A DNA stretch of 64,000 nucleotides. It comes from an uncultured Gemmatimonadaceae bacterium. GTDB taxonomy: Bacteria; Gemmatimonadota; Gemmatimonadetes; Gemmatimonadales; Gemmatimonadaceae. The DNA lies in contig CAVVTZ010000007.1 of the NCBI GenBank assembly GCA_963751275.1, forward strand, positions 416,001-480,000, read 5' to 3'. Of this stretch, positions 3,392 through 59,249 are shown one piece after another. The position numbers and the translations under genes were made by a program. Below the pieces are notes generated by a model that was not told where the DNA came from, did not search any database, and worked only from the letters and a program-made list of their open reading frames with translations. Position 1 is the stretch's first letter, and each line of letters starts with the position of its first letter.

Positions 3392-5035
3392 TCAGAACCG
3401 GTAGCTGAGACTCGCGTACAGCTGGTCGTTGCTCTCGAGGCCACCGGTCGTGCGCATTGCGGAGATCAGCAGGTACCACGACCGCGTGAGCCCCACGTCC
3501 GCGTCGAGGCCGAACCACCGCACCATGGTCTGCGGCACGGTCGTGGAGTCGGTGGCCACGATGCGCGGATCGTGCTCCTGCCGCAGGCCGCCGTTGAGCT
3601 CCAGCCGCAGCCGCCACACGGGGCTGAATCCCACGTTGCCCGCATAGAGCCACCCATCGATGGTCTGGCTCGTGTACTTCGTGGTGCGCAGTCGCACGGT
3701 GCCCTGCATCGCGAAGTTCGTCGCGATCCAGCCCGTGTACGACGACGCGGCGCCGTACGCCCCGCCCAGACTCTGCCGCGCATCGCCGCCGATGTGCAGC
3801 GCGCGCATCGGTGCGATCGAGATCCCGCCCCACATCCCCTCGCGGAAGCTGTCGTCGAACGACGTCTCGGGGCTCACGTAGTCGCGGTACAGGATCACGT
3901 TGCGCCGGTTGTCGAAGCCGCCGTACAGACTCACGAAGTCGGTCACCTGCAGCTGCGCAGTGGCGAAGGTGCTCGTGGGCGCGAGCGTGGGCAGTCCCAT
4001 CGCGGCCTTCCATCCGCGATTGTAGTCCACCTCCTGCGTGGCATACAGAGTGAACCGGCGGTCGGAGAAGAACGCCTGCGCGAAGAGGAACTCGCGATTG
4101 AGCGCGCTGCCGTCGTACGAGCCAATGCCGCCCACGGTGAAGGCCCATTGCGCCGCGCCGCCATTCGCGCTGAGCGGCGAAACGGGCGCCTGGTGGATCT
4201 GCACGTAGCCGCCGTACTGTCGTATCTGGCTCGAATAGCCCATGGTGAGCGGATCGGGTTGGGATCCGCCGAAGGCACCGAAGCTCCAGTGCTGCTTCAC
4301 CAGCTCCGCCGTCGCACCGTCGAACAGGCTCACGCTCGAGAGCGCCGACACGTATTGACGCCCCACGGTCATGTGGGCGCCGGACGCCGCGTCCACCCAC
4401 GTCACCGCCGCCTGGTAGACGCGCAGCGCGTCGTCGCTGGTCGTCGTGCCGTCGGGGAGCACGGTGTACGTGCGCCGGCTGCGCGTGTCCAGCGCGAAGA
4501 AGATCGGTGAGCCATTCACCGCCGCGCCGAACAGACTCAGCTCCAATCCCGGCTGTGAGATCCGTCCCGTCGCCGAGTCGCGGCCGGCCACCAGTTGGTA
4601 CGTGACGCCGATCCGCCCGCGGATCCCGAGATCCTTCAGCCGGCTGGGCGGCGGCGCGCCCGACGCCCGCGCCTGCGCCACCTTCACGCTGTCCGCCGGG
4701 AGCTTCGAGAAGCGCACGCTGTCATAGACATTCACCGCCGAGGCGCCGCTCGCGACCTCGCACGCCGCCGAATGCGACGAGAGATACTGCACCTTGAGTT
4801 CCGCGATCACGGCGCCGGCGCGCAGCACCACTACGCGGCTCCCATGCCACACGCCGTCGCGGCTGCCGGCCGAGATGTACACCGACTGCCCGGAGACGTA
4901 CGACACCATCGTCGCGCCGGAGAGCGAGTCGGGGAGCGGCGCCGGCGCGGCGCCGCTGTTCACCGCCTGCGCCGCCACGGCGGGCGCGACGAGCGCCGCC
5001 GCGAACGCGAGCTGCCGCACGACGCGCGCGCTCAT
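3392..5035 (-). CDS. Outer-membrane beta-barrel protein, putative porin of a porin-cytochrome complex
   Basis: Signal peptide, amphipathic beta-strands, C-terminal YASLSYRF (BamA-type signal). Start overlaps the stop of the upstream multiheme cytochrome gene. Confidence 0.75.
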   Translation of the reverse strand: MSARVVRQLAFAAALVAPAVAAQAVNSGAAPAPLPDSLSGATMVSYVSGQSVYISAGSRDGVWHGSRVVVLRAGAVIAELKVQYLSSHSAACEVASGASAVNVYDSVRFSKLPADSVKVAQARASGAPPPSRLKDLGIRGRIGVTYQLVAGRDSATGRISQPGLELSLFGAAVNGSPIFFALDTRSRRTYTVLPDGTTTSDDALRVYQAAVTWVDAASGAHMTVGRQYVSALSSVSLFDGATAELVKQHWSFGAFGGSQPDPLTMGYSSQIRQYGGYVQIHQAPVSPLSANGGAAQWAFTVGGIGSYDGSALNREFLFAQAFFSDRRFTLYATQEVDYNRGWKAAMGLPTLAPTSTFATAQLQVTDFVSLYGGFDNRRNVILYRDYVSPETSFDDSFREGMWGGISIAPMRALHIGGDARQSLGGAYGAASSYTGWIATNFAMQGTVRLRTTKYTSQTIDGWLYAGNVGFSPVWRLRLELNGGLRQEHDPRIVATDSTTVPQTMVRWFGLDADVGLTRSWYLLISAMRTTGGLESNDQLYASLSYRF

Positions 5036-6513
5036 CCGGCCCGTCCGCGCGGATGGCAGCTGTAGCACGCCTGGCTGTCATAGCGGTAGCCCGACACTCC
5101 GTGATGATTGTTGTTCGTGCTGGTCTGTGAGTGACAGCCGTTGATGCACGAGAAGACGACGTAGTTCGCCGGGTTCGTGTGGCAGGTGGCGCAGCTGCTC
5201 CACCGGCCGTTGTGCGCGCCGGAATAGATCGGGAAGAAGCTCGCGTCGTGATTGAAGGTGGCGCCGAGCCAGGTGGACGTCGTGTGGCAGTTCTGACACG
5301 CCGTGGGGAATCCCGCCGCCGCGTGCGCCGGATTGTTCGTGCCGTTGTAATCGGTGAGGTGGCAGGACACGCACGTCGTCGGCTTGCCGGCGTATACGCC
5401 GTCGCTGTGACAGGCGGTGCAGGCCAGCGGGATGTGCGCGCCGGTGAGCGGGAAGAGCGTCTTCGAATGGTCGAACACCGCGCCCGTCCACGTCGTGGTG
5501 GAGTGGCACGTCTCGCACGTCGTACCGAAGCCGGACGCGCTGTGGCTGGGCGTCGCGGTGTTGTAATCGTTGAGATGGCACGACACGCACGTCGTCGGCT
5601 TCCCCTTGTAGACGTTGTCCGAGTGGCACGCCGAGCAGATGAGCGCGAGGTGCGCGCCGGTCAGCGGGAAGAGCGTCTTCTGGTGGTCGAAGGCCGCGTC
5701 GGTCCAGCGCACCGTACTGTGGCAATCGAGGCACTCGGTGGGGAAGCCGGCCGGCGCGTGGGCGGGCGACGCCGTGCCATTGTAATCGGTGAGGTGGCAG
5801 GAGACGCAGGTCGTCGGCTTCCCCTTGTACACGCCGTCGCCGTGGCACGCGCTGCATTGCACGGCCAGATGCGCGCCGGTGAGCGGAAAGAGCGTGGCCG
5901 AATGATTGAACGTCGAGCGGTCCCACGTCACGGTCGTGTGGCAGGCTTCGCATACCGTGGGGAATCCGGCCGCCTGGTGCGGAGGGTTCACGGTGGCGAC
6001 GTACGCGGGCATGTGGCAGGCCATGCATTCCACCGGCCGTCCGACGAACGTCATGTGCCCCTGCTGCACGGGCGGGTGGCACGACATGCAATCCGCCATC
6101 ACGTGCGCGCCGGTGAGCGGGAAGCGCGTGGTCTGGTGCCGCTGGTTCATGACCGACCGGTCGAGGAAGTTCCTCGGCGAGTGGCACAGCGCGCAGTTCG
6201 ATCCGAGCTCGCCGCGGTGGATGTCCTGGTGGCAGTCCGCGCACTTGGTGCTCGTGCCCTTGAACGTGAGCGACGTGTGGCACGCGCGGCAGTTCGTCTG
6301 CGCGTGGGCCCCCTCCAGCGGGAATTGCTTGGGCGCGTGCTTGAAGCCGGCGCTGATCTTCGCCGGCTTCCAGGCGTCGGGACTGTGGCACGACGCGCAC
6401 GGCTCCTTGAGCTCGCCGTGCGGGTTCGTGACGGTCTGCTGCGCGGGCGCGGACGGCGCCGCGCCGAGCACGCACGCGGTGGCGGCGAGCGCCAGGATGA
6501 TCGCACGGGTCAT
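5032..6513 (-). CDS. Multiheme c-type cytochrome (18 CxxCH + 1 CxxxCH)
   Basis: Signal peptide MTRAIILALAATAC...; motifs counted by hand. Repeating FPLTGAH triheme units. Confidence 0.92.
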   Translation of the reverse strand: MTRAIILALAATACVLGAAPSAPAQQTVTNPHGELKEPCASCHSPDAWKPAKISAGFKHAPKQFPLEGAHAQTNCRACHTSLTFKGTSTKCADCHQDIHRGELGSNCALCHSPRNFLDRSVMNQRHQTTRFPLTGAHVMADCMSCHPPVQQGHMTFVGRPVECMACHMPAYVATVNPPHQAAGFPTVCEACHTTVTWDRSTFNHSATLFPLTGAHLAVQCSACHGDGVYKGKPTTCVSCHLTDYNGTASPAHAPAGFPTECLDCHSTVRWTDAAFDHQKTLFPLTGAHLALICSACHSDNVYKGKPTTCVSCHLNDYNTATPSHSASGFGTTCETCHSTTTWTGAVFDHSKTLFPLTGAHIPLACTACHSDGVYAGKPTTCVSCHLTDYNGTNNPAHAAAGFPTACQNCHTTSTWLGATFNHDASFFPIYSGAHNGRWSSCATCHTNPANYVVFSCINGCHSQTSTNNNHHGVSGYRYDSQACYSCHPRGRAG

Positions 6514-8519
6514 GGGCGGACCGGTTGAGTGTGGCAGCTCTCGCACTTCGGCGAGAGGCCGCGGTAATCGATCGACGCGCGCGGTGCGCCGGGCGGCGGT
6601 TTGTGGCAGCCGGCGCACGGGACCTTCGCGTGCGCTCCGGTGAGCGCGAACGACGCGTCGCGGTCGTGATCGAAGCGCACGGCGGGCACGAACGCATCGA
6701 GCCCGTGACAGCTCTCGCATCCGCCGGCCGCGCGGCGCTTCGCGAACTGATCGCCGTGCGGGTCAGTGTGGCACGCGACGCACCCGTCGTGCCGCGCCGC
6801 GAACGTGATCGTGGCCGGCGCCTTCGCAAGGATGAGCGTGGACTTGAACGGCGCGGCCTTCATGTCGGTGTGGCAACTCACGCACGGCACCGCGAGATGC
6901 GCCCCCGCGAGCGGGAACGCCGACTTCGCGTGCGCGGCGGCGTCGAACGTCGAGGGCCGGAAGTGCTTCGTGTCATGGCACGCCGCGCAGGTCGCGTACA
7001 GCTTCGCCTCGTCCGCGCGCGTGAAACGCCCGCCGTGCGCATCCAGGTGGCATGCGGCACACGACGTCTCCGGCACCTTGAACGCGACTCTCGCCTTGCC
7101 GAGCCGCTCGGGCGCCGCGAGCGGCGGCAGCCCTGCGCGTCCCACCGAGTGGCACGCCCCGCACGGGATCTCGGCGTGCCGGCCGTCGAGCGCGAGCTTG
7201 AGCGAGGCGTGCGCCTTCGTGGTGTACGTCGTCGGCGTCCAGCCGGCGACCTTGTGGCACGCTTCGCACGCGCCCTTGTCGGAGCGTAATGCGAGCTGGC
7301 CCGCATGATCGTCGGCGTGACAATCGCGGCACACGGCGCGCGCGGGCCGCATTTCGATCTGCTTCCGCGATGCGCCCGCCACCGTCACCGTGCGCGTCGC
7401 GTGGCACGCACCGCACTTCACGGCGGCGTGCTTCCCCTCCAGCGGATACGCGCTCTTCGCGTGCTGCGCCACGGTGTACGTACTCGGGCGGTAACCCTCC
7501 ACGGTGTGGCAGGCGTCGCAGTCCACCGTTCGGCCGGCGAGCGTCGCCTTGCCGGCGTGCACATTGGCGTGGCATCCGTTGCAGCTGCCGAATGCGGGAT
7601 GCATCCCCTGGCTCGGGAATCCGATGTGACAGCTCGCGCACGCGACCGTGGCGTGCCGGCCGCGGAGCGGATAGCGCGTCGCATCGTGATCGAAGGTCTT
7701 CCGGTTGATCGTCTGGAAGCTCGACGTCACGTGACACTTGTCGCACGCCCCGGCGAGGCGCCCCTTGTGCGGGTCCGCGTGACAGTCGGCGCAGTCCGCA
7801 TGGCTCACCGGCTTGAACACCGGGATCAGCGCGCCCTGGTCGTTCGTGCGCGGCGCGAGGCGCGCGGCCGTGTGGCACTTGGCGCACGGCACGTCCGCAT
7901 GCTTGCCCGTGAGCGGATACGCCGAGCTGTCGTGATCGAATCCGCTCGCCGGTTTCCATCCCGTCATCACGTGGCAGGTGAGACACTTGGCGCCGAGCGC
8001 CTTGCGGTGCGGGTCCTCATGGCACGAGAGGCAATCGGTCTCGAGGCCCACCCAGCCGGCGCCGTGCGTGCGCGGCGACAGCGCGGCCACGGGCGATGTG
8101 CGGAATGCCGTCTTGTGGCACGACGCGCATTTCAGATCCGCGTGCTTGCCCTCGAGCGGCCAGCCCGCTTGCCGGTGGTCGAACCGCTCAGCGGAGCCGT
8201 CGGGCCACTTGATGAGGGAGAAGTCCGTGCCGGCGTGATCCGGATGGCAGCTCGCGCACGCCGCCTTCGCGTTGCGCGCGTGCAGTCCGCGTCCGCTCTC
8301 CACGAGCGCGGGGATCTCCTTGTGACAGCTCACGCACGCCTGGTTCATCGCGCCGCTCCTCGTGCCGTGACACTTCGTGCAGTTCAGCGAGCCTTCGAGT
8401 TCCGCATGCGGCTTCGCCAGCGGACCGGGCGAGATCTGCGCCCGGAGCGCGAACGGCACCGCCACCATCGCGAGCAGCACGCAGGCCGCCCGCACCGCGC
8501 TACCCGGCTTGAGCGACAT
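6510..8519 (-). CDS. Multiheme c-type cytochrome (23 CxxCH)
   Basis: Signal peptide followed by QISPGPLAKPH. 23 CxxCH motifs counted, with FDH/PLxGxH distal-His motifs. Confidence 0.92.
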   Translation of the reverse strand: MSLKPGSAVRAACVLLAMVAVPFALRAQISPGPLAKPHAELEGSLNCTKCHGTRSGAMNQACVSCHKEIPALVESGRGLHARNAKAACASCHPDHAGTDFSLIKWPDGSAERFDHRQAGWPLEGKHADLKCASCHKTAFRTSPVAALSPRTHGAGWVGLETDCLSCHEDPHRKALGAKCLTCHVMTGWKPASGFDHDSSAYPLTGKHADVPCAKCHTAARLAPRTNDQGALIPVFKPVSHADCADCHADPHKGRLAGACDKCHVTSSFQTINRKTFDHDATRYPLRGRHATVACASCHIGFPSQGMHPAFGSCNGCHANVHAGKATLAGRTVDCDACHTVEGYRPSTYTVAQHAKSAYPLEGKHAAVKCGACHATRTVTVAGASRKQIEMRPARAVCRDCHADDHAGQLALRSDKGACEACHKVAGWTPTTYTTKAHASLKLALDGRHAEIPCGACHSVGRAGLPPLAAPERLGKARVAFKVPETSCAACHLDAHGGRFTRADEAKLYATCAACHDTKHFRPSTFDAAAHAKSAFPLAGAHLAVPCVSCHTDMKAAPFKSTLILAKAPATITFAARHDGCVACHTDPHGDQFAKRRAAGGCESCHGLDAFVPAVRFDHDRDASFALTGAHAKVPCAGCHKPPPGAPRASIDYRGLSPKCESCHTQPVRP

Positions 8520-9936
8520 CCGGCTCGAGCGGGATCTCCTTCTGCACCATGCGCACGCCCATCCGCTCGAGGAACGCGGAAGGGGGATCGCCGCCGATGC
8601 GGATGATCACGTCGTCATTCGGGAGGATCAGCGCTTCGCCCGCGGCGTCGAGCACCACCACATCGCCGCGGATCTCGCGCACGGTGCTGTTCAACACCAC
8701 GTGCACGGTGCCGAGTTCGACCGCGCGGTCGAGCTTCTGCCGCAGCCGATCCTTGAGGCGCGCGAAGCGGTCTCCTCGATAGCTGAGCGTGACCGTCGTG
8801 CCCGCCTGGTTCGCGAGGCCGAGCACGGTCTCCACCGCCGTGTCGCCGCCGCCCACGACCAGCACATGCCGCTTCGCGAAATCCTCCATCTCCGCCACGT
8901 CGTAGAAGACCTTCCCCAGCTCCTCGCCGGGCACGCCGAGGCGGCGCGCCGTTCCGCGCCGCCCCATCGCGAGCACCACATGCCGCGCGCGGTACTCGTG
9001 CTCGCCCGCGCGCAGACGGAAGAGCCAGCCCTGCCGCGTGATGTCCTCCACGCGGCGCTCGGTCTCCACGCGAAGACCGGTGGTCGCGACGATCTCCTCC
9101 CACGCCTGGAGCAGCGCTTCTTTCGATCCGTCGGCGACATAGAGGTCGCCGTACATCGGGATGTTCAGCGGCTCCGCGAAGAGGAGTTTGTGCCGCGGAT
9201 ACTTCCGCACGCTGTCGGCGAGCGACCCCTGCTCGAGCACCACATAGGTCAGCCCCGAGCGCAGCGCCTCGAGACCGGCGCTGAGTCCCGCGGGTCCCGA
9301 GCCCACGATCGCGACATCGACGGTCGCGTCCGTCGCGACCGGCATCGCGCCGGCGCTCACGGCGCGGCGCACGTGCTCCATCGCGACCTTCCCCTCGTTG
9401 ATCGCGTTCTTGATCAGACCGCGGCCGCCCAGCTCACCCACGATGTACAAGCCGGGAATGTTCGTCTCGAAATTCCCATCGACTTGCGGCACGACCACGC
9501 GGTTCACGGCGGCGCCCGCGGACATCGCGATCGCGCCCACCGGGCACGCGGTCGCGCACTCGCCGTGCCCCACGCAGTGCGCGGCGTCCACGACGGCGAG
9601 CTTGCCTCGCATCGTGATCGCGTTGGGCTCCGGGCAGGCATGCACGCACGTCCCGCATCCGACGCACATGTCCGAGCGCACGTGCGCGCGCATCGCGCCG
9701 CCGGCGTCGTCCGCCGCGTCGGGCGCGACCGCCGCGGCCACGACGTCGAACAGCTGCAACGGTACCCGGCAGCCAGGGCACACCACCGCACCCGCCGGCA
9801 CCGCGGCCCGGCATCGCGGGCACGCGGCGATGCGCGGCCGTGCCGGACGCGCCGCCGCGGAGCCGGCCGGCTTCCGCAGGTGGAAGTAGACCGACAGCGA
9901 GGTGATCACCAGGAACCCGAGCGTGGTCCAGAGCAT
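8500..9936 (-). CDS. Membrane-anchored zinc-ribbon / 2x[4Fe-4S] / FAD-NAD(P)H oxidoreductase (thioredoxin-reductase/YpdA-like)
   Basis: N-terminal TM helix; CPRC..CPGC; CVGCGTCVHACP and CVGHGECATACP; GSGPAG (FAD); GGGDTA (NAD(P)H). Confidence 0.85.
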   Translation of the reverse strand: MLWTTLGFLVITSLSVYFHLRKPAGSAAARPARPRIAACPRCRAAVPAGAVVCPGCRVPLQLFDVVAAAVAPDAADDAGGAMRAHVRSDMCVGCGTCVHACPEPNAITMRGKLAVVDAAHCVGHGECATACPVGAIAMSAGAAVNRVVVPQVDGNFETNIPGLYIVGELGGRGLIKNAINEGKVAMEHVRRAVSAGAMPVATDATVDVAIVGSGPAGLSAGLEALRSGLTYVVLEQGSLADSVRKYPRHKLLFAEPLNIPMYGDLYVADGSKEALLQAWEEIVATTGLRVETERRVEDITRQGWLFRLRAGEHEYRARHVVLAMGRRGTARRLGVPGEELGKVFYDVAEMEDFAKRHVLVVGGGDTAVETVLGLANQAGTTVTLSYRGDRFARLKDRLRQKLDRAVELGTVHVVLNSTVREIRGDVVVLDAAGEALILPNDDVIIRIGGDPPSAFLERMGVRMVQKEIPLEPDVAQAG

Positions 9937-9941
9937 GCGCG

Positions 9942-10976
9942 CTACCGGAACCAGGTGGCGCCCAGCCACACCACCACCGCCACGTGGATCACCACCGCCA
10001 CCAGCGCGGTGATCGCGAAGGGCCGGTGCGCCACGTGCCAGAAGCGGAACACCTTGTGCGTCGCGTCGAGCATGCGCGCCTGCTGCTCGAGCGCCATCTC
10101 CCGGCTCGCCAGCGCCACCACCTGCTTCAGCGCGGCGCGCTCGGCGGCGCGGTTCTTGTGACGCTGCACCTTGAAGGAGAAGGAGCCTTCGTCCATCAGC
10201 TTGGTCCAGCGCCGGCGCAACTCGCGCGTCATCCGCCAGCGCGCGAAGTCGTTCGTGAGGAGTTGCGCGAAGGCGCGGCCGGCGCCGGTGGACGACGGCA
10301 GCGTCGCGCCGATCGCGAGCGTGCGCTCCACGGTCGGCACATCGACGCCGAGCGCTTCGGCGATCTCCTCGACGATCGCGCGGCGGCGGCCGGCCACTTC
10401 GTCGCGCGTCAGCTCCACGCCGGTCTTGCTGCGCGGGATCCGCACGTACAGGTAGCGCCCGACGATGCCGCTCGCGACCACCACCATCATGGAGAGGAAG
10501 CCGAGACCGATGAGTCCCTCGAAGCGCCACGCGGCGTGGATCGCGAGCAGCAGGGGCAGGCCGAGCGCGACCAGGATGTGCACGTCGAGCCACTTCGCCA
10601 CGGTGCCGGTCCACGCGAGCGACTTGTACTTCTTGCGCAGGGGGTAGAGCCAGAGGAAGAGAAAGATCGCGAGCGCGAGAATGCCGGCCGACTGGCCGAT
10701 GTACCCCGACGGGCGGAGCCATACGTGGAGCGGCGAACGCACGCGCTCCGCGGGCGACAGCGAGTAATAGCGCCAACCCGCGATGTTCGCGGCGGCGAGC
10801 ACGCCGAGGATGATGGCGAGCCACGGCCCGCCGCCGGCGCGTGCCTCGGCGCGCTCGCGCGGCGGTCTCGCCGGTCGCGGCGACGCCGATGGGTTCGCGG
10901 TGGTTCCCGGCGCGGCGGGGATGCGCAGGTCTCGCGGAGGGATGTTGGCCCTCGCGAGATTGGAGCGTTCAGTCAT
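9942..10976 (-). CDS. Ferric-reductase-like transmembrane (di-heme b) protein
   Basis: About five TM helices with two H-x13-H pairs (H-ILVALGLPLLLAI-H and H-RPFAITALVAVVI-H). Confidence 0.75.
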   Translation of the reverse strand: MTERSNLARANIPPRDLRIPAAPGTTANPSASPRPARPPRERAEARAGGGPWLAIILGVLAAANIAGWRYYSLSPAERVRSPLHVWLRPSGYIGQSAGILALAIFLFLWLYPLRKKYKSLAWTGTVAKWLDVHILVALGLPLLLAIHAAWRFEGLIGLGFLSMMVVVASGIVGRYLYVRIPRSKTGVELTRDEVAGRRRAIVEEIAEALGVDVPTVERTLAIGATLPSSTGAGRAFAQLLTNDFARWRMTRELRRRWTKLMDEGSFSFKVQRHKNRAAERAALKQVVALASREMALEQQARMLDATHKVFRFWHVAHRPFAITALVAVVIHVAVVVWLGATWFR

Positions 10977-11335: not shown

Positions 11336-12529
11336 ATGCCGTTCGTCCGCACCCGTCTTTCCGCGATGATGTTCCTCCAGTATTTCGTCTGGGGAGCGTG
11401 GTTCGTCACGATGGGCACCTACCTCGGCACGACGCTGAAGTTCAGCGGCGCCGAGATCGGGCTCGCGTACGGCGCGACCGCGATCGCCGCGATGATCTCG
11501 CCCTTCTTCGTGGGCATGTTCGCGGACCGGTTCTTCGCGAGCGAGAAGCTGCTCGCGGTGCTGCATCTCCTGGGCGGCGCGCTCCTCTGGCTCGCATCGC
11601 GCGCGGGCACCTTCAGCACGTTCTATCCGCTGATCATCGCGTACGCGCTGTGCTACATGCCGACGCTCGCGCTTTCGAACTCGATCTCCTTCGACCACAT
11701 CGGCGACCCGCAGCGCGATTTCCCGCGCATCCGCGTGCTGGGGACGATCGGGTGGATCGCTGCGGGTCTTGCGGTGGGCCGGCTCGGCCTCGAAGCGACC
11801 GCCGTGCCGATGCAGCTCGCCGCGGGCGCCTCGGTGCTGCTCGGCGTCTTCTCGCTCGCGCTGCCGCACACGCCGCCGCATGCTGCCGGCAAATCGCTCG
11901 CCGTGCGCGATGTCCTCGGCCTCGACGCGCTCTCACTCATGAAGGATCGCTCCTTCGCGACGTTCGTGATCGGCTCGCTGCTGCTCTGCATCCCGCTGCA
12001 GTTCTACTACGCGTTCACGAATCTCTTTCTCAACGAGATCCATCTCGCGGAGCCCGCGACGAAGATGACGCTTGGTCAGGCTTCGGAGATCGGCTTCATG
12101 CTGCTCTTGCCGTGGTTCCTCACGCGCATGGGCGTGAAGCGCATCCTGTTGCTGGGCATGGCCGCCTGGGCGCTGCGGTATTTCTTCTTCGCGCAGGGCA
12201 ACGCGGGCTCGCTGGTGTGGATGCTCTACGCCGGCATCCTGTTGCATGGCGTGTGCTACGATTTCTTCTTCGTGACCGGACAGATATACGTGGACCAGCG
12301 CGCCGGTCTCGCGGTGCGCGCGGCGGCGCAGGGATTCCTCGCGTTCATCACGCAGGGCGTGGGACTGTTCATAGGCGCGTGGGCGTCGGGTGCCGTGGTG
12401 GATGCATATCGCACGGCGGATGGGGGGCACGATTGGCACGCGATATGGCTCGTACCGTCGGCGGGGGCGCTGACCATCCTGCTGGTGTTCGCGTTCCTCT
12501 TCCGGCCGCAGCCGCGCGTTGCGGCTTAG
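11336..12529 (+). CDS. MFS nucleoside:H+ symporter family permease (NupG/YegT-like)
   Basis: [51 protein letters not shown]. Confidence 0.9.
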
Positions 12530-12540
12530 GCATCTGGAAC

Positions 12541-12672
12541 GAGCAACAAACTGCTTTGACAGGATGACAGGATGAACAGGACAAGGACGGGATGACGGCC
12601 TGATCGCGATCAGGCCGTCATCCCGTCCTTGTCCTGTTCATCCTGTCATCCTGTCAAAGCAGTTTGTTGCTC
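12541..12672. repeat. 132-bp perfect palindrome (GACAGGAT family)
   Basis: Two 66-bp arms are exact reverse complements with no loop. Lies between convergent genes. Confidence 0.95.
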
Positions 12673-12674
12673 CT

Positions 12675-13910
12675 TCACGGTCTCCATTTTCCTTGGGCCA
12701 CCGCGGGGATGAAGGAATCCAGCCCCCTCGGCGGAAAAGTGACCGTCTTCCCCTGCTCCGCGCTCATGTATCCCGCCATGAGCATGCGCACGACATCCAG
12801 CCCATCGTCGAAAGTGAGGCGCGGAGTCTCGAGTCCGAGGAACGCGCGCACGAAGTGACGATCCTCCGCCTCGTAGCCGTACGCGACCGCTTCGTTCGCC
12901 ACCACCGGCATCTGCCCGGTCTCGGCGTTCTGCTTCTCGACGAGATCCTCGCCGCTCTTCGCGTTCACTTCGCGGCTGAAGAACAGCTTCAGCCCGCTGT
13001 CGAGGGTGTTCCACGTCATCGAGTACTCGGGCCCGAGCAGCTCGGCGGACAATCGCAGCCCCGGACCCACGAAACTCCACGACGTGGTCGCTTCGCCGAT
13101 CACGGTGTGACCGTCGGCGGTCTCGAACTCGATCATCATGCTCGCGAAATCCTCGGCCGGCGTCTTCGTGTAGTCGACCTCCTTGCCCATGCTCGCGCGC
13201 AGGCGCTTCGCGTATTCGGGTCGCGACCATTTCAGGCTCGCGATGTGCGCGGTGATCTTCACCGGCTTCACGCTCGACAGCGGCTTCCCCGGCGCGGTGA
13301 GCAGATGCCGCACCATGAGCGCCGAGTGGCACATCATGTCGTTGAGCACGCCGCCGCCCTGCAGTTCGCCGCGCCAGAACCACGGCATGTGCGGGCCGCT
13401 GTGCTCCTCGGCGGCGCGCGCGAGGTACGGCCGTCCGGTCGCGGCGGCGCCGCGCTTCCAGAGCAGCGAGTGCCCGGTCTCGACCTGCGGCGCGAAGATC
13501 TGATTCTCGAGATACGCGGTGGCGAGGCCGGCCTTCGCCGCGAGATCGCGCACCTTGGTCGCCTCGGCCACGTTGCGCGCGAGCGGCTTCTCGCAGGCGA
13601 GTCCTTTGAGTTCGCCGCGTCCCTTCTCGAGCGCGTGCACGATCTCTTCCACGTTCTCGATGCGCGCCTGGTTCGGGCCCGTGAGCCAGATCGCATCGAT
13701 CGCCGGATCGGCGACCATCTCCGCGATCGAGCGGTACGGCTTCGCATCGCCCACATCCAGCTCGCGCGCGTACGCGGCCGCCGACGCGGCGTTCTTCGCG
13801 TTGGGACTCCATACGCCACGCACGTCCCCCTCGCGTACGCCGCGCCAGCCGAGCATGTGGAAGCGCGCGTTGAATCCACTGCCAATGAAACCGACGCCGA
13901 GCCGTTTCAC
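12675..13910 (-). CDS. Gfo/Idh/MocA family oxidoreductase
   Basis: GTG start overlaps the upstream stop. GFIGSGF, CEKPLA, GGGVLNDMMCH. Confidence 0.88.
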   Translation of the reverse strand: MKRLGVGFIGSGFNARFHMLGWRGVREGDVRGVWSPNAKNAASAAAYARELDVGDAKPYRSIAEMVADPAIDAIWLTGPNQARIENVEEIVHALEKGRGELKGLACEKPLARNVAEATKVRDLAAKAGLATAYLENQIFAPQVETGHSLLWKRGAAATGRPYLARAAEEHSGPHMPWFWRGELQGGGVLNDMMCHSALMVRHLLTAPGKPLSSVKPVKITAHIASLKWSRPEYAKRLRASMGKEVDYTKTPAEDFASMMIEFETADGHTVIGEATTSWSFVGPGLRLSAELLGPEYSMTWNTLDSGLKLFFSREVNAKSGEDLVEKQNAETGQMPVVANEAVAYGYEAEDRHFVRAFLGLETPRLTFDDGLDVVRMLMAGYMSAEQGKTVTFPPRGLDSFIPAVAQGKWRP

Positions 13911-14543
13911 TTTCGCGTGGGTCTCGCGTCCATCATCGCATCGTTCACGCCAAGTTTTTCGAGCGCGGCGGGCGGGCAGCCGTTCCACTCGGCCACCGCC
14001 TTGTTCCCGAGGTACTGCACATCCTTCCATCCCATCGCGCTCGAGAAGAAGCCCGGACGCGGTCATGTCGCGGAAGCGCGAGAAGAACGCCGCGCCCTGG
14101 CTGTACTCCGGCTTCGCCTTCTTGGGCCACGCGATGTCATCGAGCAGCTGTCGGCGTTCGGCATCGGTGCACGCGGTGAACGGCTTGCCAAAGCGATCCT
14201 CGCAGGCGAGATCGAGCCATGCGAGCCCGCCGCGCATCGCGGTGCGCGTCATGTCCGACGTGTTCGCGTCCGCGAGTATCCAGTCCATGAACTCGGGGAC
14301 CTTCGCGTCGGTGGCGCTGCCCGAGCGCTCGTCGCGCGGGATCACATAGTCCACGAGCACCACCACCGTGGCCCACTCGTGGCGATTGAAGAACTTCGGC
14401 GCGTACGGCGCCGCGCTGGTCTCCGCCAGGCTCTTGAGATGCTCGGCCGCGCGCGCTGTTTGCGCGGAGCTCCACTCGATCGCGCCGATCGCTGGCGCGG
14501 CGGCGAGCCACTTCATCATCGCGCGGCGCGAGATGCGGCTCAT
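13907..14543 (-). CDS. Gluconate 2-dehydrogenase subunit 3 family protein (Tat), +1 frameshift near 14052
   Basis: SRRAMMK Tat motif; IPRDERSGSATDAKVPEFMD. Removing one G restores ...SGFFSSAMGWKDVQYLGN. Confidence 0.82.
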
Positions 14544-16228
14544 AGCGCCCCCGCCGCGCGCTGCTGCGCGATGTACTCGCTCGTGCGCATCGAGAGGGCG
14601 AGGATCGTCCACGTGGGATTCTTGTCGGCTTGCGACACGAACGGGCCGCCGTCGGCGACGAAGAGGTTCTTGCAGTCGTGCGCCTGGCAATGCGCGTTGA
14701 GCGCGCTCGTCTGCGGATCGTTCCCCATGATGACGCAGCCGAGCTCGTGGATGATCCGGCCGCCGGGCGCGATGCCGTAGCCCTGTTCCTTCGTGGGCAT
14801 CGGATCGAAGACCGTGCCGCCCATGTCGGCGATGAGCGCGCGGAACGTCTCCTGCATGTGCTTCACCTGATTCAACTCGTGATCGCTCCATTTCCAGTGG
14901 AAGCGGAGCACCGGAATGCCGTAGCGGTCCACGACGTTCGGATCGAGTTCGCAGTAGCTGTCGGCATTGGGGATCATCTCGCCGCGGCCGGAGAAGCCGA
15001 CCGTCGCGCCGTAGTAGCGGCGATAATCATCCTTCAACTGCTTCCCGTAGCCGCCGCCCGGCGGGTATTCCTGAATGCCGCCCATGAATCCGTAGCCGGG
15101 CGAATCGAGGCCGCCGCCCATCTCAATGTGATATCCGCGCGGGAAGTCGAGCTTGGCGTTGTCGAGCCACCAGGGCGAATAGATGTGTGCGCCGCCCACG
15201 CCGTCCTCGTTGTGCGGCACGTGGTCCATCATCTTCGGGATGAATCCGCTCACGCCCGCGCCGGTGGTGTCGGTGAGGTACTTGCCCACCACGCCGCTCG
15301 AGTTCGCGAGCCCCTGCGGAAAGAGCGACGACTTCGAATTCAGCAGGATGCGCGCGGATTCGCACGCGCTTGCCGCGAGCACGACCACGCGCGCGCTCGC
15401 GTGGCGTTCGGTGTTCGTGGTCTTGTCGATGTACGCGACGCCCTGCGCGAGCCCGTCCGCGCCGACCGTCACCTCGCGCGCCATCGCATTGCACACGAGC
15501 GTGAGCTTCCGCGTCTTGAGCGCCGGCGCGATGAGCACATCGGGGCTCGAGAAGTTCGACGCCGTGCCGCAGCCGCGCCCGCATTGCCCGCAGTAGTGAC
15601 ATGCCGCGCGGCCGTGGATGGATTTCGTGATGATCGAGAGCCGCGACGGGATGCACGTGACGCCGAGGCGGTCGCACGCCTGCTTGATCATCAGCTCGTA
15701 GCAGCGCGGCTTGGGCGGCGGGAGGAATTTCCCGTCGGGGTGATTCGGCAGCCCCTCGATGCTGCCGAACACGCCGATGAGTTCGTCGACCTGATCGTAG
15801 TAGGGCGCGAGATCGTCATAGCCGATCGGCCAGTCGTCGCCGAGTCCGTCGCGGCTCTTCCCGCGGAAATCCTCGGGACCGAAGCGCAGCGAGATCCGCC
15901 CCCAGTGGCTGGTGCGTCCGCCGAGCATGCGGGCGCGCCACCAGTCGAAATTCGTGCCGGGCGCGCGCGTGTACGGCTCGCCCTCGATCTCCCAGCCGCC
16001 AATGCAGCCGTCGAACTCGCCGAAGGGTTTCGTCTTGGTGGAGCCGCCGCGCCGTGGCGAGGAATATTCCGGCACGAGCATCTTGGAGTCCTTCGTGGCG
16101 TACCACTCGGGCCCGGCCTCGAGCAGGAGCACGTTCGCACCCGCTTTCGTGAGGACGTACGCCGCCATGCCGCCGCCGGCGCCCGAGCCGACGATGCACA
16201 CATCGTATGTCGTGTCGGCCTTCCGCAT
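14540..16228 (-). CDS. GMC family oxidoreductase (glycoside 3-dehydrogenase-like)
   Basis: GSGAGGG, RMLGGRTSHWGR, CHYCGQCGRGC, HELG, KNPTWTI. Confidence 0.9.
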   Translation of the reverse strand: MRKADTTYDVCIVGSGAGGGMAAYVLTKAGANVLLLEAGPEWYATKDSKMLVPEYSSPRRGGSTKTKPFGEFDGCIGGWEIEGEPYTRAPGTNFDWWRARMLGGRTSHWGRISLRFGPEDFRGKSRDGLGDDWPIGYDDLAPYYDQVDELIGVFGSIEGLPNHPDGKFLPPPKPRCYELMIKQACDRLGVTCIPSRLSIITKSIHGRAACHYCGQCGRGCGTASNFSSPDVLIAPALKTRKLTLVCNAMAREVTVGADGLAQGVAYIDKTTNTERHASARVVVLAASACESARILLNSKSSLFPQGLANSSGVVGKYLTDTTGAGVSGFIPKMMDHVPHNEDGVGGAHIYSPWWLDNAKLDFPRGYHIEMGGGLDSPGYGFMGGIQEYPPGGGYGKQLKDDYRRYYGATVGFSGRGEMIPNADSYCELDPNVVDRYGIPVLRFHWKWSDHELNQVKHMQETFRALIADMGGTVFDPMPTKEQGYGIAPGGRIIHELGCVIMGNDPQTSALNAHCQAHDCKNLFVADGGPFVSQADKNPTWTILALSMRTSEYIAQQRAAGAL

Positions 16229-16233
16229 CGCGC

Positions 16234-17026
16234 TCAATTCCCCGCGTCGGGCAGCTGGCGCACCCAGAATGTTCCGGTAGCGCACCGGATAGCTGTGGTC
16301 CTGCAACAGGATCGGCAGCTTATCGGGCATGGGCGCATACGGCGGCCGGCGCTTGTACGCGGTGGGACCGGTGAGCACCGCATCGCTCTGCACGAGCACG
16401 CCGTTTTGCACCACCGTCACCCGCGCGGCGCACTGGAGCGTGCCGTCGAGATTGAACCGCGGGCAATGGAAGATGATGTCGTACGTCTGCCACTCGCCGG
16501 GCGGCCGGCTCGCGTTCACCATCGGCGGATACTGGCCGAACACCGATCCCGCGGCGCCATCGGCATACGTGGGATTCTCGTACGAATCGAGCACCTGCAC
16601 CTCGAAGGCCGACATGAGGTACACGCCGCTATTGCCGCGCTCCTGGCCCTCGCCCGTCGCGGGCGTGGGCGTGCGCCACTCCACGTGGAGCTGCACGTCG
16701 CCAAAGCTCTGCTTGGTCTGGATGTCGCCGGTCTTGGCGACGACCTCCATGTAGCCGTGCTCCACCTTCCATTTCGCCGGCGCTCCCGCGCTGTCGCCGC
16801 TCGCCCACTGTGACAGATCCTTTCCGTCGAAGAGCACGATCGCATCACTCGGCGGCGCGACCGGCTGCCCGCCGGGCGCGGGCTTCACCACCGGCGGCTG
16901 CGGGCGGTCCATCGAATGCTGCGGATACGCCGTGACGACCGGCGAGGGCAGGGTCGGGCATTGGGCGCGGATCTGCGCAGCAAGGATCGGCGAGAGAGCA
17001 AGGATCGCGAGGCGTGGATGCATCAT
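16234..17026 (-). CDS. DUF1080 / 3-keto-disaccharide hydrolase domain protein (artefactually fused to the GMC gene)
   Basis: LFDGKDLSQW, GNSGVY, GEWQTYDI, LQDH. Removing one T near 16268 gives YRNIWVRQLPDAGN*. Confidence 0.85.
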
Positions 17027-17086
17027 CGGCGTCCGCAAAGGAAGGAAGGCAATTATGCACTCGTGCTTGGCCGGCTACAAGCGCGC

Positions 17087-56840: not shown

Positions 56841-58027
56841 TCGACCCGCTCCTCGCGTTCCGCCCGGAGTTCCCGATCCTGGCGCGCTCGAATTATCTCG
56901 TGTCGAATTCCCTGGGTGCGATGCCGCGCGCCGCGGGCGACCGGATGGCCGAGTACGCACGCACGTGGAGCGAACGCGGCGTGCGCGCCTGGGCCGACGG
57001 GTGGTGGAACATGCCGGTGACCGTCGGCGACGAGATCGCGCCGCTCATCGGCGCGGGCGCGGGGGAGATCGCGATGCTCCCGAACGTGAGCCTCGCGCAC
57101 GCGACGGTGCTGTCGGCGCTGGATTTCCCGCCCGAGCGCAATGCGATCGTGATGACGGCGCTCGACTTCCCGAGCGTGCGCTACGCTGTAGAGGGGATGG
57201 CCGCGCGCTTCGGCGCGCGGGTCGTGACCGTGCCGAGCGACGACGGGATCGGGATCGAGCTGGAGCGGCTCCTGGCGGCGATCGATGAGCGCACGCGGCT
57301 GGTGGCGGTGTCGCACGTGCTCTTCCGGTCGGCGTACATCATGGACGCCAACGCCATCGTTCGACGCGCGCACGCGATGGGCGCGCTCGTGATGCTGGAT
57401 GCATTCCACTCGGTGGGCGTGCTGCCGGTGGATGTGCGGCGCAGCGGGACGGACTTCCTGGCCGGCGGCGTGCTGAAGTGGCTGTGCGGGGGCCCGGGGG
57501 GCGCGTTCTTATACTGTGCACCGAGCCTCCGTGATACTCTCATGCCTGCTCTCACGGGATGGCAGGCGCACGCGCGGCCGTTCGCGTTCGAAGCAGAGCA
57601 GGTTCCGGCGCAGGGCGCGTGGCGGTGGCTCAACGGCACGCCGGTGATCCCCGCGCTCTATGCGGCGGCGGAGGGGCCGAAGCTGCTGCGGCGCGCGGGG
57701 ATCGAGCGCGTGCGCGCGAAGAGCATGCGGCAGACGGCGCGGCTGATCGCGCTGGCCGGCGAGCGCGGCTACGAGGTGCACGCGCCGCGGGACGCCGAGC
57801 GCCGCGGCGGCACGGTGGCGTTCCGCGTGCCGCATGCGTACGAGGTGAGCCAGGCGCTGCTCGCGCGCGACATCATCGTGGACTACCGGCCCGACGCCGG
57901 GATCCGCGTCGCGCCGCATTTCTACACGCACGATGACGAGATCGAGGCGGCGGTGCGGGCGATCGACGAGATCCTCGCGACCGGCGACTGGAAGCGGTTC
58001 GAGGGCGCCCGCGGCGTGGTGACGTGA
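56837..58027 (+). CDS. Kynureninase-like class V PLP enzyme
   Basis: SNSLGAMP, DFPS, DAFHSVG, LKWLCGGPG, GTP, RRGGTV. Confidence 0.8.
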   Translation: MIDPLLAFRPEFPILARSNYLVSNSLGAMPRAAGDRMAEYARTWSERGVRAWADGWWNMPVTVGDEIAPLIGAGAGEIAMLPNVSLAHATVLSALDFPPERNAIVMTALDFPSVRYAVEGMAARFGARVVTVPSDDGIGIELERLLAAIDERTRLVAVSHVLFRSAYIMDANAIVRRAHAMGALVMLDAFHSVGVLPVDVRRSGTDFLAGGVLKWLCGGPGGAFLYCAPSLRDTLMPALTGWQAHARPFAFEAEQVPAQGAWRWLNGTPVIPALYAAAEGPKLLRRAGIERVRAKSMRQTARLIALAGERGYEVHAPRDAERRGGTVAFRVPHAYEVSQALLARDIIVDYRPDAGIRVAPHFYTHDDEIEAAVRAIDEILATGDWKRFEGARGVVT

Positions 58028-58085
58028 ACGCCTTGTAGCGCCCGCGCGCGCGCCGTAACTTCGGGGGACCTTCATCCCCAGGGCT

Positions 58086-58313
58086 ATGCCGACTCCTCCG
58101 AAAAAGCTTCGCAAGAAGTACGAGAACACCAAGTATCCGGCCGTGGTCCTGCGGTTCGAGGACGGGCACGAGATCGAGATCCGGAAGGGGCAGGGAAAGG
58201 TCTTCGACTGCTATTCCGGCGAGCACATCAAGGTGCTGGCAATGTACGATCCGACGTCGAAGGAGCGCGAGCTCGTCGAGACGCGGAACGCGGGGACGTT
58301 CACGGACGCGTAG
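58086..58313 (+). CDS. Small hypothetical protein
   Basis: 75 aa with typical codon usage. Confidence 0.6.
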   Translation: MPTPPKKLRKKYENTKYPAVVLRFEDGHEIEIRKGQGKVFDCYSGEHIKVLAMYDPTSKERELVETRNAGTFTDA

Positions 58314-58317
58314 ATAC

Positions 58318-59249
58318 GTGACGGCGGCTTTCGGCTGGCGGCTGTCGGCTGTCGGTCTCGGGGGGATAGTCCTCGCGGCGGGCGGGATCGCTCGGAGCGC
58401 AGAAGGCCGACACCGCGAAACTCCATCGCACGCTCGACTCCCTGGCGGCGGCGCACCATGGCGTAGTCGGGTATGCGGTGCGCGATCTCGATGCCGGATG
58501 GCGGCTCTCGCTGCGCGGCGATTCGACCTTTCCCACCGCGAGCCTGATCAAGGTGGGCGTGCTCGTGACGCTGTACGATCTCGTGGAGCACGGGCAGATG
58601 TCGCTGAACGATCCGCTCGTGCTGCTCGCGATCGACAAGGCGGGCGGCAGCGGGGTGCTGCAGAACCTGCAGACACCGCTCACGATCACCGTGCGCGATG
58701 CGGCGCAGCTGATCGATCGAGACGAGCGACAACACCGCCACGAACCTCCTGCTCCAGAAGATCACGATCGCGCGCGTCAACGCGCGGCTCGATTCGCTGC
58801 GCCTCGCCAATACGCGCGTCCATCACCTCGTGATGGAGCGCGCGATCACGAGCATCGCGCGCGACAGCTCCGAGAAGTACGGGCTCGGCAAGACGACGCC
58901 CAACGAGATGGCGCAGCTCTTCACGCTGCTTGCGCAGGGGAAGGCGGTGAGCCCCAGGGCCGACTCGGCGATGCTCGCGATGCTCGAGACGAACGAGGAG
59001 ACCGAACTGATCACGCGCCAGTTCACCGGCGTGCGGGCGGCGCACAAGTCCGGCAAGGATGACGACGTGCGCACCGAGTGCGGGTTGTACTACCTGCGCA
59101 CGCGCGTCGTGATCTGCGTGCTCACCCGCGCCAACGCGGACCAGCGCTGGATCATCGACAACGAGCCCGAGCGGCTCATGGGCCGCATGGGCGCCGAGAT
59201 CGCGCGAGCGGTCGGTCTGCCGCCAAAGGCGACCGTCGAACAGAATTAG
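58318..59249 (+). CDS. Class A beta-lactamase-like serine hydrolase (two +1 frameshifts)
   Basis: TASLIK (SxxK), SDNTATN and HKSG are spread over three frames. Confidence 0.75.

Follow-up and report, generated by a model that had tools for sequence, protein, structure and literature searches.

In a 64,000-nucleotide stretch of contig CAVVTZ010000007.1 from an uncultured Gemmatimonadaceae bacterium (the whole stretch is called the window below), we identified five minus-strand genes that are translationally coupled. They encode, in this order, an inner-membrane protein (IMP), a membrane-anchored iron-sulfur (Fe-S) flavoprotein, a 23-heme c-type cytochrome, a 19-heme c-type cytochrome, and a putative outer-membrane beta-barrel (Table 1). 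The best reading of this set, for and against which we see about equal chances, is that electrons pass outward from NADPH through flavin adenine dinucleotide (FAD), Fe-S clusters, and two b-type hemes to a wire of c-type hemes. Its basis is the coupling of the genes, the heme counts, the His pairs, and the motifs and linkage of the flavoprotein, all read from the sequences, together with five transmembrane (TM) helices and a barrel that are predicted by folding. The broader proposal is that this is an NADPH-fed conduit across the envelope that bypasses quinones, is widespread, has a wire of tunable length, and employs a modular “split NOX” family of IMPs; it is tentative and falls slightly short of an even chance.

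Table 1. Genes of the putative electron conduit, with their positions in the window
Feature	Position	Strand	Description
Inner-membrane protein (IMP)	9942..10976	-	344 amino acids, 5 TM helices, two WX3HX13H motifs; predicted di-heme b
Membrane-anchored Fe-S flavoprotein	8500..9936	-	478 amino acids; N-terminal TM helix, ferredoxin domain, permuted YpdA/thioredoxin reductase-like FAD/NADPH module
23-heme c-type cytochrome	6510..8519	-	c7-like repeats, cleavable signal peptide; likely periplasm-spanning
19-heme c-type cytochrome	5032..6513	-	18 CxxCH + 1 CxxxCH, cleavable signal peptide; likely barrel-associated or extracellular
Outer-membrane beta-barrel	3392..5035	-	547 amino acids; N-terminal beta domain 40–109 + predicted 22-strand barrel

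A sequence-only reading of the window, made beforehand, had described five co-oriented genes that overlap or nearly touch and that carry 42 c-hemes, and this description was borne out. The IMP and flavoprotein genes are separated by a 5-nucleotide gap, the flavoprotein and 23-heme genes overlap by 20 nucleotides, and ATGA overlaps occur at both the 23-heme/19-heme and the 19-heme/barrel junctions. By motif count, the total of 42 consists of 23 CxxCH motifs in the first cytochrome, and 18 CxxCH motifs and one CxxxCH motif (CINGCH) in the second. The real start of the flavoprotein is the ATG at 9936. A longer open frame at 8500–10824 (774 amino acids) was ruled out as the flavoprotein because its first 296 residues lie over the IMP gene in another frame and homologues have a length of about 478 amino acids. 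A scan for promoters and terminators gave only a chance-level result. The close homologues that carry names belong to Gemmatimonadaceae or Gemmatimonadota.

The IMP carries the two H-x13-H pairs noticed earlier in a TM protein, which we located at W129-x3-H133-x13-H147 and W313-x3-H317-x13-H331. The conservation of these pairs had been set in advance as a check, and all four residues (H133, H147, H317, and H331) proved to be invariant in 98 of 98 diverse homologues; a fifth His, H84, is not invariant (64/98). Both WX3HX13H motifs also occur in all 67 of the locus IMPs examined, and TM4 carries SGIVG. The AlphaFold2 model (mean pLDDT 87.8) shows five TM helices together with a 135-residue helical loop (178–312), which is predicted to be cytoplasmic. 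The short loop after TM2, also predicted to be cytoplasmic, is basic, with a mean of 5.0 K + R in 16 residues, and its R114/K115 are near-invariant. Because this loop is basic, the positive-inside rule would assign H133/H317 to the cytoplasmic face of the membrane and H147/H331 to the periplasmic face, and the IMP is predicted to bind two b-hemes. Its sequence kinship to the ferric reductase domain is weak. The hhalign comparisons of the IMP alignment with MsrQ and YodB of E. coli were not significant (MsrQ probability 0.4%), a sequence search of the PDB with the IMP profile found nothing (best E 0.67), and no relative was found in viral contigs. In the fold search, the matches with low root-mean-square deviation (rmsd) were four-helix bundles, among them 5oc0 (Z 7.1) and 7ah0 (Z 7.0), in a range that is common for helical bundles, and they included a designed two-heme bundle (Z about 7). 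NOX, STEAP, and MsrQ chains were absent among the fold matches listed, which leaves room for kinship.

The sequence-only reading had described the flavoprotein as a membrane-anchored enzyme with two [4Fe-4S] clusters and an FAD/NAD(P)H module. The anchor, the flavin part, and the NADPH motifs were all found, but probably only one of the clusters is all-Cys: the ferredoxin domain has one CxxCxxC motif and one CxxHxxC motif (C121, H124, and C127). Of 55 homologues, 53 retain the N-terminal TM helix as an anchor (hydropathy above 1.5), a count from which 15 further open reading frames (ORFs) were dropped as fragments or as sequences without the canonical first motif. Residue conservation was assessed in 66 aligned sequences, i.e., the query and 65 loci, after the exclusion of four loci with broken or partial genes. 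C91, C97, C101, C121, C127, and C131 are invariant across this alignment, whereas H124 is retained in 65 and C94 in 54 of the 66. Given the CxxHxxC motif and the retention of H124, one cluster is likely to be His-ligated or a 3Fe cluster, and the other can probably lose a Cys. A zinc-ribbon-like segment (CxxC-x10-CxxC) is optional and was found in 16/55 homologues.

The flavin module belongs to the Pyr_redox_3/thioredoxin reductase (TrxR) fold by family match. Residues 208–464 match residues 6–270 of YpdA/Bdr (E 4.7e-32), and residues 149–191 correspond to the C-terminal part of thioredoxin reductase (7jyp 296–340, E 4.7e-4), the latter with weaker support from a second search. In a Sphingobium relative, these two segments stand in the canonical order; since the C-terminal TrxR segment precedes the YpdA part here, the flavoprotein is circularly permuted. 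Its closest solved relatives are the YpdA structures 7a76 (E 4.7e-32) and 7a7b (E 2.9e-29), and TrxR-fold ferredoxin-NADP+ reductases are also among its structural relatives. Two enzyme identities were rejected. A bacillithiol disulfide reductase (YpdA/Bdr) is contradicted by the permuted order and by the TIGR04018 score (165 bits against a cut-off of 340), and a thioredoxin reductase by the flavin part, in which no homologue (0/55) has the redox-active CxxC. The three Gly and the Ala of GGG(D/S)xA are present in 66/66 sequences, R387 in 66/66, and R393 in 62/66; we take this motif and these Arg residues to be a typical NADPH-binding fingerprint, and a preference for NADPH is accordingly inferred from the motifs. 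YpdA itself is described as NADPH-dependent and as working with no catalytic Cys (bioRxiv 2020.12.02.408641). Two relatives of the permuted flavoprotein, with 680–695 amino acids (L169:6562-8601 and L170:7683-9767; numbers of this form are our locus labels), lack the N-terminal ferredoxin and have a CxxCxxC elsewhere in the protein. No IMP or multiheme gene was detected near either of them.

Both cytochromes have cleavable signal peptides and are built of c7-like repeats, with 29 residues per heme in the 23-heme protein and 26 in the 19-heme protein. The former has a conserved QISPGPL N-terminus, and the latter is organized in three-heme repeats of roughly 73 residues. The extra His residues suffice for bis-His ligation of every heme (28 for 23 hemes and 21 for 19). 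Against the DmsE family TIGR03508, the two proteins score 35 and 30 bits, compared with a cut-off of 192, and a PDB sequence search with the 19-heme protein found nothing. Heme counts of relatives come from 52 loci that have a barrel and two cytochromes, after the exclusion of four irregular ones. The first cytochrome has 17–23 hemes, and exactly 23 in 35/52 loci; the second cytochrome ORF has 6–46, the lowest values arising partly from split genes. In the porin-cytochrome clusters known as PCC3, the reported numbers are 21–27 for the periplasmic and 10–35 for the extracellular cytochrome (Hoover et al., 2023, PMC9900912). Several relatives show variant arrangements. In L067, a cytochrome with 58 CxxCH motifs is inverted, together with its barrel, relative to the IMP and the 23-heme gene; in L052, L058, and L083, cytochrome-plus-barrel pairs are duplicated downstream of a single IMP/flavoprotein input; and in several others (e.g., L028, L048, L049, and L057), a pair of 18- and 16-heme cytochromes adjoins the IMP/flavoprotein module.

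The last gene of the operon, which the sequence-only reading had taken to be a beta-barrel, was confirmed as a predicted barrel. The AlphaFold2 model (mean pLDDT 85.4) has 22 strands in residues 138–546 and an extra small beta domain at the N-terminus, hydrophobicity alternates in 21 of the 22 hand-drawn barrel strands, and a C-terminal Phe is found in 113/115 homologues. The protein has no Pfam or NCBIfam match. Its fold neighbours among the matches listed are generic porins, TonB-dependent receptors, and ushers; MtrB was absent among these, although kinship is still possible.

We examined the linkage of the IMP and the flavoprotein in one set of 301 genomes from the host's phylum, in which related genomes give non-independent counts. 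The IMP profile matched in 67/301 genomes, 65 of them strongly, and the flavoprotein was found in 69/301. The flavoprotein is present in all 65 genomes that match the IMP strongly, and the IMP in 65 of the 69 flavoprotein genomes; among the other four, three are contig-end cases and one belongs to another subfamily. The locus set comprised 72 loci, 71 from genomes (two genomes gave two each) and one from a plasmid. In 69/72, the flavoprotein and the IMP are located together in one stretch; of the other three loci, two lie at the end of a contig, with the flavoprotein present elsewhere in the genome, and the third represents a distant paralogue. Relative to the IMP, the flavoprotein gene occurs in five layouts: divergent (36 loci), directly after (18), at the downstream end of the operon (9), before (3), and convergent (3). 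Co-occurrence of the genes in other genomes had been proposed as a point on which the idea could fail, and these counts left it standing. In metagenome loci, the flavoprotein was present in 61/80, and in 9/9 of those long enough on both sides. The cultured Bacteroidota strain Emticicia oligotrophica DSM 17448 carries the whole set on a plasmid (EMTOL_RS21090-21110) in the order ccsA, IMP, flavoprotein, 23- and 40-heme cytochromes, and barrel, which is the order of the window. Other homologues of the IMP bear the labels Acidobacteriota, Krumholzibacteriia, and Verrucomicrobiota. The ESM Atlas returned only clusters of hypothetical proteins, and a single-protein search of the genome contigs gave one locus. 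Hitch-hiking is a poor explanation for a linkage that persists through five rearrangements and across two phyla.

A set of ten more distant IMP loci, without a barrel match, indicated that the IMP family may combine with different dehydrogenases. An adjacent NAD(P)H flavoprotein was found in 6/10 of these loci, and it is of three kinds: a ferredoxin-NADP+ reductase (FNR) + 2Fe-2S protein with a NOX-type fold (L172 and L182), an unpermuted TrxR-cNMP-Fer4 protein (L181), and a Pyr_redox_2 protein (L085, L173, and L174). These six loci are porin-less three-gene modules that consist of the NAD(P)H flavoprotein, the IMP homologue, and a 7–12 heme cytochrome. One of them, L182, is carried by a conjugative plasmid of Sphingomonas, where metal-response genes surround it. 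Among ferric reductase domain (FRD) proteins, those with all four His residues are reported to group with dehydrogenase-bearing forms (Zhang et al., 2013, PMC3591440), and an NAD(P)H input has been inferred for MsrQ-like systems (Meheust et al., 2021, PMC8238504).

In the proposed mechanism, the flavoprotein would take electrons from cytoplasmic NADPH and pass them through FAD to two Fe-S clusters, of which the His-bearing one may contact the cytoplasm-side heme (H133/H317) directly. Electrons would then cross the IMP from the cytoplasm-side to the periplasm-side heme b, where the 23-heme protein may dock at H147/H331. The 19-heme protein would pass through or onto the barrel, so that the 42 c-hemes might reach the cell surface. 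The NAD(P)H input suggested by the sequence-only reading is thus supported in part, namely by the linkage of the flavoprotein and the IMP, the motifs of the flavoprotein, and the NAD(P)H partners of the distant IMPs. Since electrons would move outward and the proton would be left inside, the membrane potential is probably spent rather than conserved; therefore, the dumping of reductant or the use of outside acceptors (metal oxides, humics, or partner cells) is likelier than energy conservation. At a separate locus, the host also encodes ccmC/ccmF together with a 17-heme protein that weakly matches NapC/NirT, which would provide another, possibly quinol-linked, electron entry.

Several observations weigh against outward transfer from NADPH. 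A search of the host genome at E 0.1 gave no PF01794 match, the IMP being below the curated cut-off, and among the 98 IMP members the family matches are weak: 27/98 for PF01794 (best E 1.5e-4), 43/98 for DUF4405, and 19/98 for cytochrome b561. CybB, a cytochrome b561 that uses quinone, is among the low-rmsd fold neighbours of the IMP (Z 7.1, rmsd 3.4, 134 aligned). PCC3 as described has four genes and no flavoprotein (PMC5566968, PMC9900912), and an IMP of this type may run on quinone. In view of the CybB neighbour and of PCC3 without a flavoprotein, the earlier claim that the electrons travel without the quinone pool was not established. In 56 loci, the pairwise distances of the IMP track those of the barrel (rho 0.83) more closely than those of the flavoprotein (0.60), and the relatedness of the genomes sampled reduces the weight of the counts. 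No conserved lipobox was found in either cytochrome, which weakens the case for surface exposure. Finally, among the distant loci, L175, L177, and L178 have no adjacent flavoprotein among the neighbours scanned, and L171 is incomplete.

He et al. (2017, PMC5566968) likened the IMP of PCC3 and PCC4 to ferric reductase/NOX and proposed a quinone-active cytochrome b. On such a model, the IMP would swap electrons with the pool of quinones, inward or outward, and the flavoprotein would act on this same protein as a dedicated NAD(P)H:quinone input, an activator, or a redox sensor. We consider this rather unlikely but worth serious weight. It fits the occurrence of four-gene PCC3 clusters in iron oxidizers (PMC9900912, PMC12442390) and the weak cytochrome b561 matches and CybB neighbour of the IMP; the FRD protein MsrQ is described as fed by the quinone pool (PMC11564096), and a cNMP-domain form of the flavoprotein exists. 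However, it does not predict the near one-to-one co-occurrence of the IMP with an anchored flavoprotein, nor that IMP homologues would have recruited flavoproteins of three kinds, and the invariance of all four His residues and the near-invariant R114/K115 in the predicted cytoplasmic loop also speak against it.

The other two alternatives concern the far end of the wire and the direction of flow. The barrel might be non-conductive, with both cytochromes held in the periplasm as an electron store or a terminal reductase of a soluble compound and the barrel admitting a substrate or exporting or anchoring the second cytochrome. The signal peptides without a lipobox, the extra N-terminal beta domain, and the generic fold neighbours are all compatible with this, but it seems improbable to us: the barrel accompanies the cytochromes in most long loci, the 17–23 hemes of the first cytochrome and 6–46 of the second follow the pattern reported for periplasmic and extracellular PCC3 cytochromes (PMC9900912), and extra His residues for the bis-His ligation of all hemes fit a wire and not a catalytic site. 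Inward flow, in which outside donors (reduced humics, minerals, or partner cells) would reduce NADP+ through the wire for biosynthesis, would agree with the uptake proposed for PCC3 in iron oxidizers (PMC5566968, PMC9900912) and with the TrxR-fold ferredoxin-NADP+ reductases related to the flavoprotein. Transfer to NADP+ would, however, be redox-uphill for most donors and run against the membrane potential, and the operon is without a proton-coupling subunit, so we regard this direction as highly unlikely.

To our knowledge, the characterized porin-cytochrome conduits of Gram-negative bacteria draw on quinols. Direct entry from NADPH, if true, would amount to a new wiring whose energetics differ, and it would be useful for bioelectrochemistry. 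It would also imply unrecognized extracellular electron transfer in Gemmatimonadota, Bacteroidota, and others of soil and sediment, and an IMP family that acts as a modular “split NOX” and has recruited several unrelated dehydrogenases. Because about one in five genomes of the phylum (65/301) carries the system, the count of extracellular electron transfer in these groups may be too low. The flavoprotein gives a PCC3-type system a defined soluble substrate and makes it simple to assay, and all of the genes are available in a cultured strain.

Outside the operon, the window and the rest of the host genome contain several other genes of possible interest. At 829–2719 of the window, two consecutive minus-strand ORFs have weak matches to Big_1 Ig-like domains; the first begins with a signal resembling that of lipoproteins and seems to run into the second through a frameshift in its tail. 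At 11336–17038, a nucleoside:H+ symporter-family gene of the major facilitator superfamily faces a sugar-oxidation cluster, in which two ORFs look like fusions (gluconate 2-dehydrogenase subunit 3 with Gfo/Idh/MocA, and 3-keto-disaccharide hydrolase with a GMC oxidoreductase) and may be frameshift errors. Elsewhere in the host, contig C9 at about 593,500–610,500 (L183) carries ccmC, ccmF, and 8-, 17-, and 16-heme cytochromes, followed by a NiFe hydrogenase with a cytochrome b, and contig C12 at 56888–58915 (L184) encodes a further 8-heme protein.

We compared the system with known ones, beginning with those that are more distant. MtrCAB and MtoAB, with CymA or ImoA, likewise combine a barrel and multiheme cytochromes that span the envelope. 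However, the cytochromes described here are far below the DmsE and MtrC cut-offs, the barrel has no MtrB Pfam match, and the entry point in those systems is a tetraheme quinol oxidase, whereas here it would be a His-pair TM protein with a flavoprotein. YpdA/Bdr and the TrxR-like ferredoxin-NADP+ reductases resemble the flavoprotein in having no CxxC and in their NADPH fingerprint; the flavoprotein differs from YpdA/Bdr in being permuted, in its fused ferredoxin and TM anchor, and in its TIGR04018 score. With the ferric reductase domain/NOX proteins (NOX/FRE, SpNOX, MsrQ, and MsrQ-like), the IMP shares four His residues in TM3 and TM5 at x13 spacing, and in both cases a cytoplasmic NAD(P)H flavin module would feed a transmembrane heme pair; MsrQ with Fre forms a two-component NOX-like system. 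In contrast, the IMP is below the PF01794 cut-off and has five TMs with a 135-residue loop, its partner is a TrxR-fold Fe-S protein and not FNR, and electrons would go on to a 42-heme wire and a barrel. Of the “split NOX-like module” put forward by the sequence-only reading, the His-pair likeness stands (it had already been published in 2017 for PCC3), and the partner differs from that of NOX in its fold.

The closest counterpart is PCC3. Its IMP is described as about 300 amino acids long, with five TMs, SGXXG on TM4, and WX3HX13H on TM3 and TM5 (He et al., 2017, PMC5566968), and the PCC3 cluster of L. cholodnii is reported to include a 22-strand porin (PMC5566968). PCC3 has been found in iron oxidizers, where uptake was proposed (PMC5566968, PMC9900912), and it was described as still functionally untested in 2025 (PMC12442390). 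Both sets contain a porin, two giant repeat-rich cytochromes (26 and 29 residues per heme here, 22–39 reported), and a five-TM IMP. The PCC3 features of a periplasmic cytochrome with about 21–27 hemes (here 23 CxxCH and a signal peptide, the location being predicted), a second cytochrome of variable length with a low residue-to-heme ratio (here 19 hemes and 26 residues per heme), and a large beta-barrel porin in the cluster (here 22 predicted strands) are all present. PCC3 is known from Proteobacteria, whereas the system described here is in Gemmatimonadota-like, Bacteroidota, and other phyla. He et al. (2017) also listed, in Supplementary Table 6 (PMC5566968), porin-less clusters of an IMP and multiheme cytochromes with an unnamed “other redox protein,” given as IDs and lengths only. 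Our distant loci match these in size and in having an IMP with two HX13H, a multiheme cytochrome, and a redox protein, and at two size-matched plasmid loci the IMPs are homologous to that of the window (94 and 86 bits) and the partners are NAD(P)H flavoproteins. These two loci differ from the operon in having 7–10 hemes, no barrel, and an unpermuted TrxR-cNMP-Fer4 or FNR-2Fe-2S partner. No description of a link between the flavoprotein and PCC3 was found in the literature searched, with subscription papers and bioRxiv supplements beyond view, and the earlier statement that no characterized example was known held in these searches. A 2026 preprint on Ferrigenium likewise contained none of the terms looked for. 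Judged by published features and motifs, four of the five genes match PCC3, the PCC3 features compared above are all present, and the TM-anchored Fe-S flavoprotein would be an addition to the known PCC3 gene set.

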